From NCBI GenBank assembly GCA_050874285.1, contig JBNMKJ010000002.1:16374-80373 (forward strand): a DNA stretch of 64,000 bases. The letters are read 5' to 3'. How positions within the stretch are numbered: position 1 is the first letter of the stretch; every line of letters starts with the position of its first letter. The stretch is from Helicobacteraceae bacterium (lineage in GTDB: Bacteria; Campylobacterota; Campylobacteria; Campylobacterales; Helicobacteraceae). This document shows, in pieces, positions 1-17,145 of this stretch. The position numbers were made by a program, and so were the translations under genes. The notes under the pieces were generated by a model. That model had not been told where the DNA came from and did not search any database. It saw nothing but the letters and a program-made list of their open reading frames with translations.

Positions 1-872
1 AGGGCAAAGATTATGAGATTTTGGAATGCACCGATGAAGTTTTCGCCCAAAATGGCGTAGAAATCGCATTTTTCTCCGCAGGTGGAAGCGTGAGTGAGCG
101 ATTCGCTCCAAGCGCGGTTAAGGCAAATGCCGTAGTGATTGATAATACAAGCCATTTTAGAATGCAAGAGGGCGTCCCACTCGTTGTCCCTGAAGTCAAT
201 AGCGAGGATATTTTCACACACAATGGCATTATCGCAAATCCAAACTGCTCTACTATCCAAATGGTGCAGGTTTTAGCACCTTTGCATAAGGCTTTTGGCA
301 TTAAGCGCGTAGATGTAGCCACTTATCAAGCCGTCAGTGGCGCGGGTAAAAAGGGTATGGAGGCGTTATTGCGCGAGACAAAAGAGTGCTTGGAGGGCAA
401 AAGCGTGGGTAGCGAAAGTAGCGTTTTCCCTTACAGCATTGCGTTTAACCTATTTCCGCACATTGATATTTTCCTAGAAAATGACTACACAAAAGAGGAA
501 GTCAAAATGATAAAAGAAACGCAAAAGATAATGCACACCGACTTTGCAGTGAGTGCGACTTGCGTTAGAGTGCCTGTGTCGCGCTCTCATAGCGAGGCTG
601 TTAGCATTCATTTTGCGCGTGAAGTGAGCGCAGATGAGGCTCGTGCGGTGCTACAAAACGCAGAAAATGTCGTGGTGGTAGATGAACCTAAAAGCCACAA
701 ATATCCTATGCCAAGCATTGCGTCCAATACGGACAGCACTTTTGTGGGGCGGATTCGTAGTGATTGCTTTGATAAGAAAATATTGCATTTATTTTGCGTG
801 GCAGACCAGATTCGCGTGGGTGCGGCGACAAATGCCGTGCGAATCGCACAGAAATTGATTGCGGGGAAATAA
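1..872 (+). CDS. asd: aspartate-semialdehyde dehydrogenase (5' truncated by window edge)
   Basis: Motifs IIANPNCSTIQM, TYQAVSGAG, TCVRVPV, DQIRVGAATNA; frame is open to the window start. Confidence 0.97.
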   Translation, partial: GKDYEILECTDEVFAQNGVEIAFFSAGGSVSERFAPSAVKANAVVIDNTSHFRMQEGVPLVVPEVNSEDIFTHNGIIANPNCSTIQMVQVLAPLHKAFGIKRVDVATYQAVSGAGKKGMEALLRETKECLEGKSVGSESSVFPYSIAFNLFPHIDIFLENDYTKEEVKMIKETQKIMHTDFAVSATCVRVPVSRSHSEAVSIHFAREVSADEARAVLQNAENVVVVDEPKSHKYPMPSIASNTDSTFVGRIRSDCFDKKILHLFCVADQIRVGAATNAVRIAQKLIAGK

Positions 873-993: not shown

Positions 994-1605
994 ATGAAAA
1001 TTTTTAGCAGTATGGTAGTTTCGTTTGTCGCAGGTAGTGTGCTATTTGCGAGTGATTTTAGTCAGTATAGCAACGATGAGCTGGTGAATCTAGCTGGTAG
1101 TGTCGAGGATATTTCAGGCTATATCAGCGAGGTTGAAAATCGCGTCAGCAAGATGAGCGAAAAGGAAGTCATTGAGTTTAGAAATAAGCTAAATGTTAAA
1201 GAAAAACAAATTGTAATCGCTATGAATGATGATGAAAAAGCAAACTACAAAAAAGACATTCAAGAGGCTTTGCAAACCAAAGCTACAAGCTCACGAAGCG
1301 TCATCAAAGAGGGCGCAGACAGCTTGGAAACCAAAGGCGAGGAAATCATCAAAAAAGGCGCGGATAAGCTAGAAAAAGGCAAAAAATCTCTTAGCAAAGG
1401 TGCGTCAAAAGCAAAAAGCGCGACTGAAAAAGGCGTAGAAAAAGGCACAAAAGCCATAAAAGACGGCGCAAAGAAAGGCAAAAATGCCATTGAAAGTGGC
1501 GTAAAAAAGGGCAAAAACACCATTGAAAAAGGTATCGAAAAAGGCGCAGATGAAACCGTCAAAGCGATTCAAAAAGGCGTGGAGAAATTAGAATCTAGCA
1601 ATTAA
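994..1605 (+). CDS. secreted DUF1104-like protein with C-terminal 11-aa Lys/Gly-rich repeats
   Basis: Signal peptide, [15 protein letters not shown] start resembling Helicobacter DUF1104 proteins, then about 9 imperfect 11-mers (e.g. [22 protein letters not shown]). Confidence 0.55.
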
Positions 1606-1630: not shown

Positions 1631-2743
1631 ATGAAAAAAGCTTTAATCACAGGCATTACAGGACAAGATGGTGCGTATTTGGCTGAGCTATTGTTAGGGG
1701 GGGGGGACTATGAGGTGCACGGCATTAAAAGGCGCTCATCACTCTTTAATACTGACAGAATCGACCATTTGTATAAGGACTATCACGAGGAGGATTGTAA
1801 ATTATTTTTGCATTATGGGGATTTGACAGATTCGATGAATCTAACGCGCATTATCCAAGAAGTGCAACCTGATGAAATCTACAATCTAGCCGCGATGAGT
1901 CATGTGGCAGTAAGTTTTGAAACCCCTGAATACACCGCAAATGCAGATGGCATAGGCACACTGCGAATCTTAGAAGCGGTGCGACTACTAGGACTCACAC
2001 AGAAAACAAGAATCTATCAAGCCTCCACAAGCGAACTTTATGGACTTGTGCAAGGAATTCCGCAAAACGAAAAAACGCCTTTTTATCCGCGTAGCCCTTA
2101 TGCTTGTGCGAAACTTTATGCGTATTGGATAACGATAAATTACCGCGAGGCTTATGGTATGTTTGCGAGTAATGGCATTTTATTTAACCACGAGAGTCCC
2201 ATTCGTGGCGAAACCTTTGTAACGCGCAAAATCACAAGGGCTGCGGCAAAAATCGTGCTAGGATTGCAAGATAAACTCTATCTTGGTAATCTCTCAGCCA
2301 AAAGAGACTGGGGACACGCCAAAGATTATGTGAAAGCAATGCACCTTATCTTACAAGCACAAAAACCTGATGATTTCGTCATCGCCACAGGCATAACGAC
2401 AGAGGTAAGAGAATTTGTGCGCCTTGTCTTTGATGAACTTGGCATAGAGCTTGAATTCAAGGGCAAAGGCGTAGATGAAAAGGCTTTTGTGTCTGCTTGT
2501 AAGGGCGAATTTAAACTTCCACTTGGTAAAGAAGTCGTATGTGTGGATAGTGGGTATTTTCGTCCAACGGAGGTGGATTTACTCATCGGTGATGCGAGTA
2601 AAGCAAGGGAAAAACTAGGCTGGACGCTTGAATATGATTTGCATTCACTCATCAAGGATATGGTGCAAAGTGATTTACATTTGATGAAAAAAGACAAATA
2701 TATACAAGATGGCGGCTATAAAATTTTTAGGTATTTTGAATGA
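1631..2743 (+). CDS. gmd: GDP-mannose 4,6-dehydratase (in-frame G10 tract near 5' end)
   Basis: [69 protein letters not shown]. Confidence 0.97.
1697..1706 (+). repeat. G10 homopolymer, putative phase-variation tract in gmd (ON)
   Basis: ttgtta-GGGGGGGGGG-actat at codons 23-26. Confidence 0.85.
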
Positions 2744-3777
2744 AAAGATTACTTATCACAGGCTCTAGCGGAATGGTGGGGCGCAATGTCAAAGAACACC
2801 CAAAGGCACAAGATTATCTCGTGCTTTCCCCCACAAGCGCGGAGTTAGACTTACTAGATAAAAGCGCGGTTGATTCATACATAAAAACTCATAAGCCCGA
2901 TATTGTCGTGCATTGCGCGGGGTTAGTGGGAGGAATTGTCGCAAATATGAATAATCTCTCAAAATTTCTCACGCACAATGCATATATGGGGTTAAACCTC
3001 ATCAATTCCTGCCACCAAAATGGTGTGAAATATTTTCTAAATCTCGCAAGTTCGTGTATGTATCCGCACTCCGCGCCAAATCCGCTAAAAGAAGATATGA
3101 TTTTGCAAGGCGCGTTTGAGCCTACAAATGAGGGCTATGCTTTGGCAAAAGTGCTAGGCACTAGGCTTTGTGAATATATCAGTGGCGCGGATAAAAGTTG
3201 CCTTTATAAGACGCTAATCCCTTGCAATCTTTATGGTAAATATGACAAATTTGACACACATAGCGCACATATGATTCCCGCTGTGATTGCGCGAATCTAT
3301 AAGGCAAAGTTAGAAGGCGTGAGAAAAGTTCCTATTTGGGGCGATGGAGAGGCAAAGCGCGAATTTATGTATGCTGGGGATTTGGCGGAGTTCATATTTT
3401 ATGCAATCGCGCATTTTGGCGATTTGCCACAGAATCTAAATGTCGGCACGGGCATAGAATATAGCATCGATGAATATTACCGCGCAATCGCTAGTGTGGT
3501 AGGATTTAGCGGGGAATTTACCCACGATTTAAGCAAACCTGTAGGAATGAAACGAAAGGTTATTGATGATACGCGTTTAAAGGCTTTGGGTTGGAACGCA
3601 AAAACGCCTTTAGAGGAGGGCATAAGAAAGACTTATGAGTATTATCTAACTATAGCTGATTCCTTAGGGGGGGGGGAATCTCTATCTAGTTTTCAAGCTA
3701 GATTTAGCACTAACGCTACACGCACCACAATCGCTACAAATCTCGCCATTTGCGCAAGTCGCATAAAGGTGGCGTGA
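2740..3777 (+). CDS. fcl: GDP-L-fucose synthase family epimerase/reductase (ColC-like subgroup) with G-tract-dependent C-terminal tail
   Basis: [47 protein letters not shown]; catalytic Cys and His are present. Confidence 0.9.
3667..3676 (+). repeat. G10 homopolymer in the 3' tail of fcl
   Basis: tcctta-GGGGGGGGGG-aatctc, located after the end of the catalytic domain (KTYEYYL). Confidence 0.85.
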
Positions 3778-4322
3778 TGATAGACTTTAATATCACACAA
3801 AGTGCCACACTACACGGCGTTTATATTATCACACCTAGCATAGCTACCGATAATCGTGGCAATATCTACACTTCATTTTTAAAAGACGAGATAGACAAAC
3901 TATTGCCAAATGGGCTATGTTTTAAACACGATAAATTTTCACACTCAATTCAAAATGTCTTGCGTGGAATCCACGGCGATACAAAGTCATATAAGTTTGT
4001 CTCGTGCGTATATGGTGAGATTTTGCAAGTCGTAGTAGATATGCGCGAAAATAGCCCTACTTATTTGCAATACGAGAAATTCTACATTAGCAAAGATTCC
4101 CAAAAATTTATTTTAATCCCACCAAATATGGGGAATGCGTATTTTGTCAAAAGTAAAGAGGTTATATATCATTACAAGTTGGCTTATGAGGGCGAGTATA
4201 TAGACGCGCCCGAGCAGTTTTCACTTGCCTATAATGATGAGCGAATCGGCATTGATTGGGAGCTAAATGGTATAGAGCCCATTCTTTCAAAGCGAGATTT
4301 AAAAAGTTTAAATAAAAATTAA
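3777..4322 (+). CDS. RmlC-like NDP-4-keto-6-deoxy-sugar 3,5-epimerase (resembles C. jejuni Cj1430-type epimerase)
   Basis: NVLRGIHGD, QVVVDMRENSPTY, YHYKLAYEGEYIDAPEQF, WELNGIEPILSKRD; start ATG overlaps the fcl stop (TGATG). Confidence 0.85.
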   Translation: MIDFNITQSATLHGVYIITPSIATDNRGNIYTSFLKDEIDKLLPNGLCFKHDKFSHSIQNVLRGIHGDTKSYKFVSCVYGEILQVVVDMRENSPTYLQYEKFYISKDSQKFILIPPNMGNAYFVKSKEVIYHYKLAYEGEYIDAPEQFSLAYNDERIGIDWELNGIEPILSKRDLKSLNKN

Positions 4323-4338
4323 CAAATAAGGAGTAAAA

Positions 4339-4743
4339 ATGAGAGAAATAAAAGAGGGCGATTTAGTGTTAGCAAGGCATATTAGCGAATCTGATTGCAA
4401 AGATGGATTAAACTTTTTTTCAAGTGATGATGAGTTTATCCAAGTGGGATTTTGGGGCTATAATGAGGGCAAAAAGCTCCTTGCACACATTCACAATGAA
4501 GTTGAGCGCAAGGTGTATTGGACACAAGAAGTGCTTTTTATCAAAAAAGGTAAAATCAAAGCGAGAATCTATGATACAAAAGAAAACTTTGTCGAGGAGT
4601 TTGAGGCAGTCGCAGGGGATATTTTAATAATGCTCCGCGGGGCGCACGGCTATGATATACTTGAAAATGACACACAAGTTTTGGAGGTAAAAAATGGACC
4701 TTATGTCGGCGCAGAGCGCGATAGAAAGAGGATAGAGCAATGA
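4339..4743 (+). CDS. cupin-fold protein of sugar-nucleotide clusters
   Basis: AHIHN...TQEVL...GAHGY...EVKNGPY His/Glu cupin pattern; Shine-Dalgarno aggag upstream. Confidence 0.6.
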   Translation: MREIKEGDLVLARHISESDCKDGLNFFSSDDEFIQVGFWGYNEGKKLLAHIHNEVERKVYWTQEVLFIKKGKIKARIYDTKENFVEEFEAVAGDILIMLRGAHGYDILENDTQVLEVKNGPYVGAERDRKRIEQ

Positions 4744-5298
4744 AACTTCATCTTGGTTGTTGGCATAGGAATATCCCTGATTTTATCAATGTGGATTTGT
4801 GCGATATGCCACATATCCATTATAAAAGCAATATAGATGATTTGTCTATGTTTAAAGATGAAAGTGCAGAGCTTATTTATAGCTCACATAGTTTTGAGTA
4901 TTTTGATAGATTTGAGGCTGTGAATGTCATAAAAGAGTGGCATAGAGTGCTTAAAAAAGGTGGCACTTTAAGACTTGCCGTGCCAGATTTTGATAAACTC
5001 ATTGAAGTGTATCATTTAAGTGGAGATTTAACTAAAATTTTAGGACCACTCTATGGCAGAATGAGTATTCAAAATGCTGTTGGGGGGGGGGCAGTCTATG
5101 ATATATCATAAAACGGTGTGGAATTTTAAGCTTTTAAGCGAATTTTTAGAACAAAACGGCTTTTGTGATGTGAGGCGATATGATTGGCGAGAAACAATAC
5201 ATAAAGACTATGATGACCATTCACAAGCCTATTATCCACATATGGATAAGGAAAATGGCATTTTAATTTCACTTAATGTGGAAGCAACAAAGATTTAA
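4740..5298 (+). pseudogene. class I SAM-dependent methyltransferase, phase-OFF (frameshift at G10)
   Basis: ORF 4740-5111 (KLHLGCW, SHSFEY, WHRVLKKGGTLRLAVPD) joins ORF 5074-5298 (YHKTVWNF...SLNVEATK) if the tract is G9, giving 185 aa. Confidence 0.85.
5082..5091 (+). repeat. G10 phase-variation tract in the methyltransferase (OFF)
   Basis: gctgtt-GGGGGGGGGG-cagtct. Confidence 0.9.
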
Positions 5299-5325
5299 AT
5301 AAAAATCAAAATATAAGGAAGTGTA

Positions 5326-6417
5326 ATGGAATTTATTATGCAAATGCGTCCTTGGTTTGGGAGTGAGGAAAAACAAGCATTGAGCGAGTATATGGACGAA
5401 GATGGCTTTTTGACCGAGTTTAAGCGCACGGCAAAATTTGAGGAAATGATAGCAAATTTCATAGGGGCAAAGCACTGCATAGTGGTAAATAATGGCACTA
5501 TTAGCCTTACTCTAGCTGCTCTAGCGGTAGGAATCAAGGCAGATGATGAAGTTATCGTGCCAAATTATACGATGATAGCTACGCCAAATTCAGTGAAGAT
5601 GTTTGGCGCAAAGCCTGTGTTTGTCGATGTGGAACGCGAAACTTTGTGTATGGATATACAAAAGGCAAAAGAGGCGATTACACCTAAAACAAAGGCTATA
5701 ATGTTGGTTAGTGCAAATGGGCGGTATCCAAAGGTAGGGATTGAAGCGTTTGTAAATCTTTGCAAAGAATACAATCTCGCACTGATAGAAGATTCCGCAC
5801 AATCACTTGGCTCATTTTATCCAAATGGTAAGCATATCGGTTCGGTGGGAATCGTGGGAAGTTTTTCTTTTTCAGCCCCTAAAATCATCTCTACAGGGCA
5901 AGGCGGTGCGCTTATAACTAATGATGATGATTTAGCGAGCAAGATTCGCAAACTTAAAGACTTTGGGCGAAGCGGTGGTGGTAATGACATACACGATAGT
6001 ATAGGCTATAATTTTAAATTCACAGAGCTTCAAGCCTGTGTGGGTATAGAGCAGATGAAAAAGTTAGAATCTCGCATAGCGCGTAAAAAAGAAATCTATC
6101 AAATTTATGAAAAGGGCTTACGCAATATAAATGGTATAGAGCTTTTTAAGCAGGATTTAACTTGCACGGTGCCGTGGTTTTATGATACACTTTGTGAGAG
6201 GCGTGATGAGCTACAAGAGTTTTTAAAACAAAATAATATCGGTTCGCGTGTAATGTATCCACCGATAAACAAGCAAGTAGCTTATCAGGTAAGTGGCGAG
6301 CATACAATTTCAAATTTAGTTGGGCAAAAAGGGCTTTGGTTACCATCAGCTACGCAGCTTAGCAATGAGGAAGTGCAATATATTTGCACTAAAATCGCGG
6401 AGTTTTATGGCAGATAG
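5326..6417 (+). CDS. DegT/DnrJ/EryC1/StrS PLP-dependent sugar aminotransferase (perosamine synthase-like)
   Basis: NNGTISL, DEVIVPNYT, LIEDSAQSLG, SFSAPKIISTGQGG with the Schiff-base Lys. Confidence 0.9.
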   Translation: MEFIMQMRPWFGSEEKQALSEYMDEDGFLTEFKRTAKFEEMIANFIGAKHCIVVNNGTISLTLAALAVGIKADDEVIVPNYTMIATPNSVKMFGAKPVFVDVERETLCMDIQKAKEAITPKTKAIMLVSANGRYPKVGIEAFVNLCKEYNLALIEDSAQSLGSFYPNGKHIGSVGIVGSFSFSAPKIISTGQGGALITNDDDLASKIRKLKDFGRSGGGNDIHDSIGYNFKFTELQACVGIEQMKKLESRIARKKEIYQIYEKGLRNINGIELFKQDLTCTVPWFYDTLCERRDELQEFLKQNNIGSRVMYPPINKQVAYQVSGEHTISNLVGQKGLWLPSATQLSNEEVQYICTKIAEFYGR

Positions 6418-15052: not shown

Positions 15053-15673
15053 ATGAAAAATCTAAGTGAAATCTTTAAGTTGCCCAAATGGGCGAAAATA
15101 TCTTTGGTGGCGTTAAGCGCAATCGCTTTTTCGCTTTTGGTGGCGGTGTTTGCTTTGCAAAGCTGGGCAGATTCGCAAGTCGAATCTGCGAATCTAACAT
15201 TTAGCAAAATAGATAGAGCAAAAAGCGCGGAGTTAGAAAATGGCTACGCTTATGAAGCAAAAGTGCATTTTCAAAGATTAGAATTTTTGCTCCGCTCAAA
15301 GTCTATCTCAAAAATCAACATAACAAATATTGCGTGGAGTGGCGTAGATTCAAGCGCAATTACTAGCTACGAATCCCACAATAATCGCCGAGTGAAATTC
15401 ACTACCACGCAAAATCTAGCCTTAGATTCAGGCGCGAATCTAGGCACTATGAGCTATAAAATAGATTTTAGTCCGTGTGCAAATGCGATTTTGTTTTATT
15501 ATATTAGCATTGTTTTTGCGGTGATTTTTGCTTATTTTGTTTTGGCAATTAGCGGAATCTCTATGCAACAAAAAGCAGAGGCGTCTTTAGGGGGGGGGGG
15601 AATTGCACTCTCAATCGCACCTCAATGCAAATCGCCCTCTTTGCTTCGCTCTACCTACTATTTTTCACGCTAA
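15053..15673 (+). CDS. membrane protein, N-terminal part of a G-tract-split gene
   Basis: TM-periplasmic domain-TM, then SLGGGGI and an unrelated frameshifted tail. Confidence 0.65.
   Translation: MKNLSEIFKLPKWAKISLVALSAIAFSLLVAVFALQSWADSQVESANLTFSKIDRAKSAELENGYAYEAKVHFQRLEFLLRSKSISKINITNIAWSGVDSSAITSYESHNNRRVKFTTTQNLALDSGANLGTMSYKIDFSPCANAILFYYISIVFAVIFAYFVLAISGISMQQKAEASLGGGGIALSIAPQCKSPSLLRSTYYFSR
15590..15600 (+). repeat. G11 phase-variation tract
   Basis: tcttta-GGGGGGGGGGG-aattgc; G9 or G12 fuses 15053 and 15625 into one frame. Confidence 0.9.
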
Positions 15674-17145
15674 ATTTTATCTTTCCCACGCAAAGCGATA
15701 ATTTAGGTAAAGGATTCGGCGGATTAAGCACGGCATATAGCTTTTATATGACTTGGAATGGGCGTCTAGGCGAACTTTTTTGCGTTGCTATTGGCTCACA
15801 TATCGCGCACACGCCACTTTATCCATTTATAAGCGCACTTTTTGGCGTGGCATTTATATATCTCTTTTTTATTTTGATTTTCGCAAGGTTGCCGTTTATG
15901 GGCGATTGCACTAGCGATTCGCGCGTGGATTCGCATAGCCACGATATATCCGTCATTTGCTTTATTTTGATTTGCCTTTTTGCGTTTAAGGGCTTTGGCT
16001 CGGTGTTTTATTGGGCGTGTGGAAGTTTTAACTACCTTTGGGCTTGGGTGCTTATAATGGCGTGGTGTGTGCCTTTTAGGCTATTTTGGGGCGAAATTTT
16101 TGCAAAAGATTCGGGCAATTTAGGCGAATCAAAAACGGATTCAAGCAAATCAAACACAAAATCGCATATTTTCTCTATGCTATTTTTGGGGCTAATCGCT
16201 GGGTGGGGAAGCGAATTTGGCATCGTGCTAATCGTTTTCCAAGTCGCGTTGATTGCCTTTGCGTTGCAAAAGCGCGTCAAATTGCCATTGTGGTATTATG
16301 TCGGCGTGGTAGGATTTATCGCGGGGTGGCTTATCTTATATCTGTCGCCCGGACACGCCGCGCGTGGCAATATCGTAAATGCCCTAAATAACGACACTAG
16401 CTTTGTAACTATATGCGAATTACTCGCAATGCCTTTGGCGGATATTTTCAAGCGATTTGCTGGGACTTTTAGCAAAGACCCAATGGGGCTAACTTGGATT
16501 GCTGTGGTGGGGCTTTTGGCGTTTTTGCGATTTGGGCTAAATATGCGAAAACGCAACATTGCAATTGTGGGAATCGTGCTATTAGTCGCCTACGCCGTGC
16601 CGATTACAAAATTTATCTTTGTGATTTTGTTGGGAATATTATGTCTTTGGGGCGGATTCGCACTACAACGCGCAAATCCCAAAAGCGCGAATCGCACATA
16701 TCTATTTGCGCTATTTGGGCTATTTGTGGCGTATTTTTTGGCAACCGCAGCCACGATTCAAGTAGGCGTCCCCGCAAGGGCAAAACTGCCATATCTACTA
16801 CTAGGAATGGCGCAAGTCATCATCGTGTGGCTGTTGCTAAAGCCGTATTTGGCGCGATTTGCCCAAACGATATGCGCGGGGCTATGTGCAATATGTGCGA
16901 TTTACGCGCTATTTGTGGTAAGTGAGGGCATAACTATGCGCCTAAAATGGGAGCGAATGTTAGCCTCCATAGAAGCGCAAAAGGCGTTAGGAAGCGACAC
17001 TGCCATAGTGAGCGCGGATACATTTCGCTCAAATTATCGTGGTTACGGCGATTGGGGCAATCCTAGCCAAAGCACAAACGAGTGGCCCAATACCACTTAC
17101 GCAAAAGTCTTTGGCGTGGAAAAGTTTATCGTAAAGGACAAATAG
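15625..17145 (+). CDS. DUF6056-like polytopic membrane protein (putative lipid-carrier-dependent glycosyltransferase)
   Basis: FPTQSDN...YMTWNGRLGELF, FYWACGSFNYLW, YLSPGHAARG; about 12 TM segments plus a periplasmic C-terminus. Confidence 0.65.
   Translation: MQIALFASLYLLFFTLNFIFPTQSDNLGKGFGGLSTAYSFYMTWNGRLGELFCVAIGSHIAHTPLYPFISALFGVAFIYLFFILIFARLPFMGDCTSDSRVDSHSHDISVICFILICLFAFKGFGSVFYWACGSFNYLWAWVLIMAWCVPFRLFWGEIFAKDSGNLGESKTDSSKSNTKSHIFSMLFLGLIAGWGSEFGIVLIVFQVALIAFALQKRVKLPLWYYVGVVGFIAGWLILYLSPGHAARGNIVNALNNDTSFVTICELLAMPLADIFKRFAGTFSKDPMGLTWIAVVGLLAFLRFGLNMRKRNIAIVGIVLLVAYAVPITKFIFVILLGILCLWGGFALQRANPKSANRTYLFALFGLFVAYFLATAATIQVGVPARAKLPYLLLGMAQVIIVWLLLKPYLARFAQTICAGLCAICAIYALFVVSEGITMRLKWERMLASIEAQKALGSDTAIVSADTFRSNYRGYGDWGNPSQSTNEWPNTTYAKVFGVEKFIVKDK

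Follow-up and report, generated by a model that had tools for sequence, protein, structure and literature searches.

In the synthesis of mycaminose the enzymes Tyl1a, TylB and TylM1 follow one another, and the position held by the cupin is that of the 3,4-ketoisomerase. Poly-G phase variation is typical of the capsular heptose loci of Campylobacter jejuni. For sugars linked to guanosine diphosphate (GDP), a review of 2022 (PMC8944477) notes that no enzyme with 3,4-ketoisomerase activity on GDP-4-keto-6-deoxymannose has been identified; according to the same review, this step of mycosamine synthesis is presumed to occur spontaneously. Our search of the literature found no description of a GDP-linked ketoisomerase, or of the gene cassette reported here. 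The subject of this work is an operon of six genes located between positions 1,631 and 6,417 of a 64,000-nucleotide stretch of DNA from a Helicobacteraceae bacterium (contig JBNMKJ010000002.1; this whole stretch is called the window below), which carries three runs of ten G residues, tracts 1 to 3. We propose, with a probability of about 0.45, that it serves the synthesis of GDP-activated 6-deoxy sugars for the cell surface, namely L-fucose and a rare amino sugar made via an epimerase, a cupin ketoisomerase, amination at C3 and N-methylation, under the control of slippage at the G runs.

In the proposed pathway Gmd would act on GDP-mannose to form GDP-4-keto-6-deoxy-D-mannose, which would then enter two parallel branches. 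In one of them Fcl would produce GDP-L-fucose. In the other, the RmlC-like epimerase would invert C5 (and C3) to give an L-configured 4-keto sugar, the metal-dependent cupin would shift the carbonyl, via an enediolate, from C4 to C3, and the aminotransferase would aminate C3, yielding a GDP-3-amino-3,6-dideoxy-L-hexose. The methyltransferase would N-methylate this amino sugar whenever tract 3 is in frame, and other organisms would N-acetylate it instead; tract 1 would switch the entire pathway and tract 3 the methylation. An L-sugar is predicted because the configuration at C3 would be lost at the isomerase step, leaving C5 as the site at which the epimerase is useful.

The operon and the cassette to which it belongs

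The six open reading frames (ORFs) are closely packed on the + strand, with ends that overlap or almost touch, and their family matches agree with the gene identities given in an initial annotation of the sequence: gmd, an Fcl-like short-chain dehydrogenase/reductase (SDR), a Cj1430-like epimerase, a cupin, a methyltransferase and a DegT aminotransferase of the Lys type. Judged by its profile score and by its similarity to the E. coli enzyme, Gmd is a canonical GDP-mannose 4,6-dehydratase, and ManC is encoded elsewhere in the genome, so that a supply of GDP-mannose is available. The SDR keeps the catalytic residues of Fcl, including the Cys and His already noted in that annotation (Ser104, Cys106, Tyr133, Lys137 and His177 align with Ser107, Cys109, Tyr136, Lys140 and His179 of E. 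coli Fcl), and its score against NF047922 stays below the cut-off of 500 bits set for that Fcl equivalog. The epimerase matches eight structures of C. jejuni GDP-4-keto-heptose epimerases at about 1e-70, and its PDB matches 8DB5, 8DCO, 7AN4, 8DCL and 7M14 (Cj1430) run from 3e-72 (8DB5) to 8e-69 (7M14). In the aminotransferase, Lys186 aligns with the pyridoxal 5'-phosphate (PLP) lysine of perosamine synthase, the one mutated in 3DR4. The methyltransferase is without a solved relative.

The annotation considered this mix of enzymes unusual. To place it, we surveyed 72 cupin loci from species genomes, 57 of which had enough flanking sequence to be counted. Judged by gene order and protein identity, the mix is instead a local Helicobacter variant of a widespread, uncharacterised cassette: the cupin, the aminotransferase and the methyltransferase are orthologues (60-78% identity) of proteins encoded together across bacterial and archaeal phyla, in the recurring order gmd, an Fcl-family SDR of about 305 amino acids, the cupin, either an LbH acetyltransferase or this methyltransferase, and the aminotransferase. 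We found gmd in 50 of the 57 loci, the Fcl-family SDR immediately upstream of the cupin in 52 and the aminotransferase downstream of it in 44, while an RmlC-like epimerase was present in only two, both from Helicobacter. The apparent loss of the aminotransferase at five loci was discarded as such, because an orthologue is encoded elsewhere in those genomes; in four of the five it is 65-68% identical, and the fifth holds a 59% match in a 126-amino-acid frame cut at the contig end. The cupin, to which the annotation had given no role, is in the surveyed loci the partner to which the aminotransferase is linked most tightly. LbH and the methyltransferase occupy one slot in alternation (LbH only in 15 loci, the methyltransferase only in 15, both in one), for which reason the methyltransferase probably acts on nitrogen, as far as gene order can tell. 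The cupin gene stands after that of a 4,6-dehydratase, with the genes of a DegT aminotransferase and of an N-modifying enzyme as its direct neighbors, the context expected of a ketoisomerase.

The pairing extends beyond the orthologues. More distant cupins (35-39% identity), from eight other Campylobacterales, lie directly before a DegT aminotransferase at all eight loci, from which it would follow that the cupin-aminotransferase pair predates the GDP cassette. Two of these loci (L109:6661-9881 and L110:5677-9770) encode a 4,6-dehydratase-like SDR, a 143-amino-acid cupin, a DegT aminotransferase and a methyltransferase of 250 amino acids; the second adjoins a sulfotransferase and glycosyltransferases.

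The link between the separate epimerase and the aminotransferase, which the annotation had suggested, is borne out by a Campylobacterales genome with 27% G+C (G205; L108:7991-11640), where gmd, an RmlC-like epimerase, the cupin, LbH and the aminotransferase are contiguous and no Fcl-type SDR is included. This row of genes fits an amino-6-deoxy sugar of the L series. A cassette lacking the reductase implies that no such enzyme is required, that the keto group would be consumed by amination, and that the SDR of other cassettes could be replaced by a pure epimerase. Of the cassette SDRs, 56 of 62 carry a Y-x-x-x-R motif, with Arg at the position of the catalytic Lys of Fcl, and keep the Cys and His needed for epimerisation, a combination that fits enzymes which epimerise without reducing. 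In E. coli Fcl, the K140R mutant (PDB 1E7S) is reportedly impaired.

Other variants of these genes were seen in the collection. Campylobacter troglodytis (L069:8587-13201) has a decayed cassette in which gmd is whole and the cupin and methyltransferase genes are fragmented. Helicobacter apodemus has, next to its cluster, a 695-amino-acid ORF (L016:5179-7266) in which an Fcl/ColC-like SDR is fused to a DegT domain with His at the position of the PLP lysine, as in ColD, and seven clusters of comparable SDR-DegT fusions of 700-752 amino acids are present in the protein collection. The fusion probably constitutes a fused 3,6-dideoxyhexose (colitose-like) pathway. We considered it as a link between Fcl and the aminotransferase of the window and rejected it, as its DegT half is only 30% identical and the His points to a dehydratase of the ColD type. 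A role of the window's Fcl as a partner of the ColC kind was likewise rejected, since the genome lacks any His-type DegT.

The cupin and the competing routes to the sugar

The cupin belongs to a large and strongly conserved family. Its 662 close homologues share 65-70% identity across Proteobacteria, Bacteroidota and other groups, and a profile search recovered 2306 representative clusters from bacteria and archaea. No Pfam family, including FdtA (PF05523), matched the family when either 21 or 106 of its members were searched with lax thresholds, and the single sequence gave nothing but noise against the PDB. The family profile found only metal cupins there (quercetinase and oxalate decarboxylase, E 0.002-0.009). 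Three residues, His50, His52 and Glu64, are invariant in the family and a fourth, His103, is almost so; this His-His-Glu-His set aligns with the residues that bind the metal in quercetinase. Enediol shifts are catalysed by metal-dependent cupins such as mannose-6-phosphate isomerase and D-lyxose isomerase, and the latter is included among the nearest named ESM Atlas clusters. In the nearest Atlas clusters, at least half of the members for which a taxon is recorded carry a viral label (Uroviricota), which hints that phages carry a sugar-modifying gene of this kind.

We modelled the cupin with AF2 from 106 diverse sequences (predicted local distance difference test score, pLDDT, 97), and discarded an earlier model built from 21 close homologues (pLDDT 69). 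The best folds were the ketoisomerase domain of FdtD (Z 8.2), WbcA (8.0), the dTDP-sugar isomerase 3EJK (7.7), HCAN_0198, the ketoisomerase of H. canadensis (7.5), and RmlC (7.5), so that WbcA and RmlC score like the ketoisomerases against it. We tentatively suggest, at rather less than even odds, that the cupin represents a metal-dependent family which fills the gap of a 3,4-ketoisomerase acting on GDP-4-keto-6-deoxyhexoses and on further sugar nucleotides, that this family arose independently of FdtA/QdtA/Tyl1a, and that it yields a class of GDP-3-amino-3,6-dideoxy-L-hexoses so far undescribed from surface glycans.

Several observations weigh against this assignment and the pathway built on it. 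The Z-scores of 7.5-8.2 are in a range that the tool rates as common for a best match, and Foldseek searches of the PDB with both cupin models returned generic cupins at E 0.01 or worse. In hhalign comparisons the family came closer to RmlC (48%) than to FdtA (2%, with a 12-sequence FdtA alignment), which makes an epimerase role possible, although the FdtA alignment does bring the two His-x-His motifs into register. Among solved structures, the aminotransferase is most similar to Per, a C4 enzyme acting on a GDP sugar. The methyltransferase could act on oxygen instead of nitrogen. An Fcl-family SDR accompanies the cupin in nearly all phyla, and a working reductase at that place would mean a different pathway. 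No fucosyltransferase of families PF00852 or PF01531 was found in the genome, nor in any of the control genomes, and the comparison of tract lengths between related genomes, given below, draws on a single comparator.

Some of these points favor an unlikely alternative in which the aminotransferase acts at C4 of the epimerised 4-keto sugar to give a GDP-4-amino-4,6-dideoxy-L-hexose, with the cupin as a second epimerase or an accessory protein. The likeness of the cupin to RmlC speaks for it, as do the LegC family, which is the best NCBIfam match of the aminotransferase, and perosamine synthase, its best solved relative (5e-54). QdtB, a C3 enzyme, scores nearly the same (4.5e-51), so that we see no sign in support of the C4 amination proposed in the initial annotation; as a reading of these alignments, the scores cannot separate C3 from C4 aminotransferases here. 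A second epimerase would moreover be redundant in cassettes that already have one, be it an SDR with Cys and His or an RmlC-like protein, and the cupin-aminotransferase pair is kept in the distant cassettes, which lack any other epimerase and encode a dehydratase and an enzyme of N-methyltransferase size. To our knowledge, RmlC-type epimerases are not marked by a conserved metal site.

It is very unlikely, in our estimate, that the 4-keto group is instead kept to the end. In that case the cupin would form a second carbonyl (e.g., by 2,3-dehydration), C3 would be aminated, and the Fcl-type SDR would epimerise and reduce C4, giving a GDP-3-amino-2,3,6-trideoxy-L-hexose as in the daunosamine and vancosamine routes. 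Such a route would explain why an Fcl-family SDR so regularly precedes the cupin and why a reductase-type SDR lies directly before the epimerase in both Helicobacter versions. G205, with the full cupin-LbH-aminotransferase set and an epimerase, has no such SDR in its cassette, the canonical catalytic Lys is missing from most cassette SDRs, and the 2,3-dehydratases we know of are not cupins. Under the C3 pathway preferred here, the Fcl before the epimerase (in H. apodemus a Cj1428-like reductase) probably yields a 6-deoxy-L-hexose, e.g., L-fucose, as a second product.

We consider it highly improbable that the products are limited to GDP-L-fucose and GDP-D-perosamine, with the epimerase and the cupin as inactive passengers and the tracts neutral or assembly noise. 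On paper, established pathways would be enough for either product, with Gmd joined by Fcl in one case and by a Per-like enzyme in the other. A cupin 65-70% identical across phyla, with invariant residues, has been under strong selection, and it co-occurs with the aminotransferase genome-wide; furthermore, the three tract sites are kept in a 90%-identical species with two lengths changed, and H. apodemus evolved tracts of its own in the same genes. Least credible of all is a modification of GDP-heptose instead of GDP-mannose, as in the C. jejuni capsule (Ddah/Mlgh routes), for although the solved structures most similar to the epimerase are without exception C. jejuni GDP-4-keto-heptose epimerases, Gmd is of the canonical GDP-mannose type and ManC is present, the HddC equivalog was not found in the genome (96% complete; its sole small nucleoside-triphosphate transferase scores 27 bits vs a cut-off of 300), the SDR resembles E. 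coli Fcl (1e-63) more than Cj1428 (3e-43), and the cassette begins with gmd in other phyla.

The G tracts and the surroundings of the operon

The three slippage tracts reported in the annotation are all G10 (Table 1). With 117 G/C runs of at least 8 in the 1.99 Mb of the genome, finding three within 4.8 kb has a Poisson probability of about 0.003, and only two more G/C runs of at least 7 occur in the window. The gene gmd is full-length at G10 only, and thus ON as had been stated; lengths of G8, G9, G11 or G12 leave 26-65 amino acids. The methyltransferase frame is split at tract 3, in agreement with the OFF state assigned to it, and would be whole at G9 or G12 (185-186 amino acids; 185 at G9). 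Tract 2 behaves differently. It lies past the Fcl domain, which remains intact at every length (315, 316, 341 or 345 amino acids), and only the tail and the spacing to the epimerase start vary. At G10 the Fcl stop codon (TGA, 3775-3777) overlaps the epimerase ATG at 3777 (TGATG), while it falls about 11 nucleotides upstream of that ATG at G9 and about 90 upstream at G8 or G11. On these frames tract 2 is not an on/off switch of Fcl; it alters where Fcl translation ends and, hence, probably how efficiently the epimerase is translated. Combinatorial phase states from three independent tracts had been expected: tracts 1 and 3 do act as switches in the reading frames, tract 2 does not, and because it leaves the Fcl domain whole there would be fewer states than three independent switches allow.

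We found the operon in one close relative only, a sister species of the same genus with 90% DNA identity. It retains all three tracts, with lengths of 10/9/9 vs 10/10/10 here, and its methyltransferase ORF is intact at G9, so the optional methylation proposed in the annotation holds, off in the window and on in the sister species. These are coding homopolymers of at least 8 with an effect on the frame, and at two of the three conserved sites their length differs from that in a relative. Other relatives have a gmd without the tract, and read LL(N/D/K)KGYE where the window has LLGGGDYE; as the latter is one residue longer, the tract in gmd is a lineage-specific insertion. The cluster of H. apodemus (L016:7251-11214) has five tracts of G10-G12. 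One of them, a G11, is in the C-terminal tail of a different, Cj1428-like SDR, immediately before the epimerase ATG, another lies between the cupin and the LbH gene, and the methyltransferase has its own tract at a different codon, being off at G10 and whole at G11. Not only are the tracts kept in the sister species with changed lengths, but H. apodemus also has its own, and together these observations argue for selected contingency switches rather than noise, as far as sequence comparison can decide it.

Table 1. Operon genes, G tracts and upstream flank (positions in the window)
Feature	Position	Strand	Best matches or predicted effect
gmd, GDP-mannose 4,6-dehydratase	1631-2743	+	TIGR01472 577 bits (cut-off 415); E. 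coli Gmd 1DB3 2e-154
Fcl-like SDR with frame-dependent C-terminal tail	2740-3777	+	E. coli Fcl 1e-63; NF047922 297 bits
RmlC-like C3/C5 epimerase, C. jejuni GDP-4-keto-sugar type	3777-4322	+	PF00908 1.5e-37; PDB matches
Metal-type cupin, 134 amino acids, uncharacterised family, proposed GDP-4-keto-6-deoxyhexose 3,4-ketoisomerase	4339-4743	+	No Pfam family
S-adenosylmethionine (SAM) methyltransferase, split at G10 (off)	4740-5298	+	PF08241
DegT/DnrJ/EryC1 PLP aminotransferase, Lys type	5326-6417	+	PF01041 2e-94
G10 tract 1, in gmd	1697-1706	+	Predicted on/off switch of gmd, hence of the whole pathway
G10 tract 2, past the Fcl domain	3667-3676	+	Sets the Fcl stop position relative to the epimerase ATG
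G10 tract 3, in the methyltransferase	5082-5091	+	Predicted on/off switch of the methyltransferase
asd	3-872		Upstream flank
DUF1104 gene	994-1605		Upstream flank

Our reading of the flanks agrees with the statement that no glycosyltransferase adjoins the operon: none was found near it, the neighbors being asd and the DUF1104 gene upstream and four tRNA genes followed by flgS downstream. A scan for promoters and terminators gave a result no better than that of shuffled sequence. Elsewhere in the window, a G11 tract is located at 15590-15600, in a pair of membrane-protein ORFs (15053-17145) without an NCBIfam match, whose product could be a transferase for the sugar of the operon. A G10 tract is also found in a small sugar-phosphate nucleotidyltransferase gene (G000:C19:29212-29221; L091:1381-1923).

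The tracts suggest that a Helicobacter can turn on or off both the display of a charged sugar at its surface and the methylation of that sugar, which would be relevant to the evasion of immunity and of phages. The operon and its relatives in dozens of phyla offer a concrete, easily expressed candidate for a GDP-sugar ketoisomerase together with its natural partners. If the proposal is true, it names a large protein family without a Pfam model and predicts new GDP-linked amino sugars in lipopolysaccharide or capsule, along with the enzymes to make them.

Comparison with described sugar-nucleotide systems

Four described systems resemble the operon in part. In C. jejuni capsular heptose synthesis (DdahB/MlghB/Cj1430 and DdahC/MlghC/Cj1428) an epimerase as similar as 1e-70 is also placed directly after an SDR. 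There, in contrast to the window, the described routes have neither cupin nor aminotransferase; here the supply points to GDP-mannose and the SDR is nearer to true Fcl. GDP-perosamine synthesis (Gmd and Per/RfbE) shares the start from GDP-mannose and a Lys-type DegT related to Per, but the aminotransferase of our cassette is never alone with gmd, always being accompanied by the cupin and an epimerising enzyme, and its likeness to QdtB is equally strong. The synthesis of GDP-mycosamine for polyene macrolides (AmphDIII/NysDIII and AmphDII/NysDII) poses the same chemical problem, as GDP-4-keto-6-deoxymannose must become a 3-keto sugar before transamination; no isomerase gene is known for that pathway, whereas here the aminotransferase has a conserved candidate as its neighbor, and the presence of an epimerase points to an L-sugar.

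A further parallel is found with the thymidine diphosphate (dTDP)-linked sugars, i.e., the dTDP-3-acetamido-3,6-dideoxyhexoses (FdtA/B/C, QdtA/B/C and the WlaR genes of C. jejuni 81116) and dTDP-mycaminose (Tyl1a/TylB/TylM1). These systems likewise have a 4,6-dehydratase, then a cupin of about 135 amino acids adjacent to a DegT aminotransferase, then an enzyme that N-acetylates or N-methylates; among the solved relatives of the aminotransferase QdtB ranks almost first, and the top folds of the cupin include FdtD and the H. canadensis ketoisomerase. The distant cassettes, with SDR, cupin, aminotransferase and methyltransferase in the same enzyme order, mirror the logic of Tyl1a-TylB-TylM1. The dTDP systems differ from the operon in the nucleotide, which is GDP here (gmd) and dTDP there, and in the cupin, which here falls outside the Pfam FdtA family, has a His-His-Glu-His metal site and is preceded by an epimerising enzyme. 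Considering all of the above, the locus may well be, though we rate this slightly below an even chance, a GDP version of the 3-amino-3,6-dideoxyhexose logic, built with an unrelated or very distant cupin and with epimerisation and poly-G control added.

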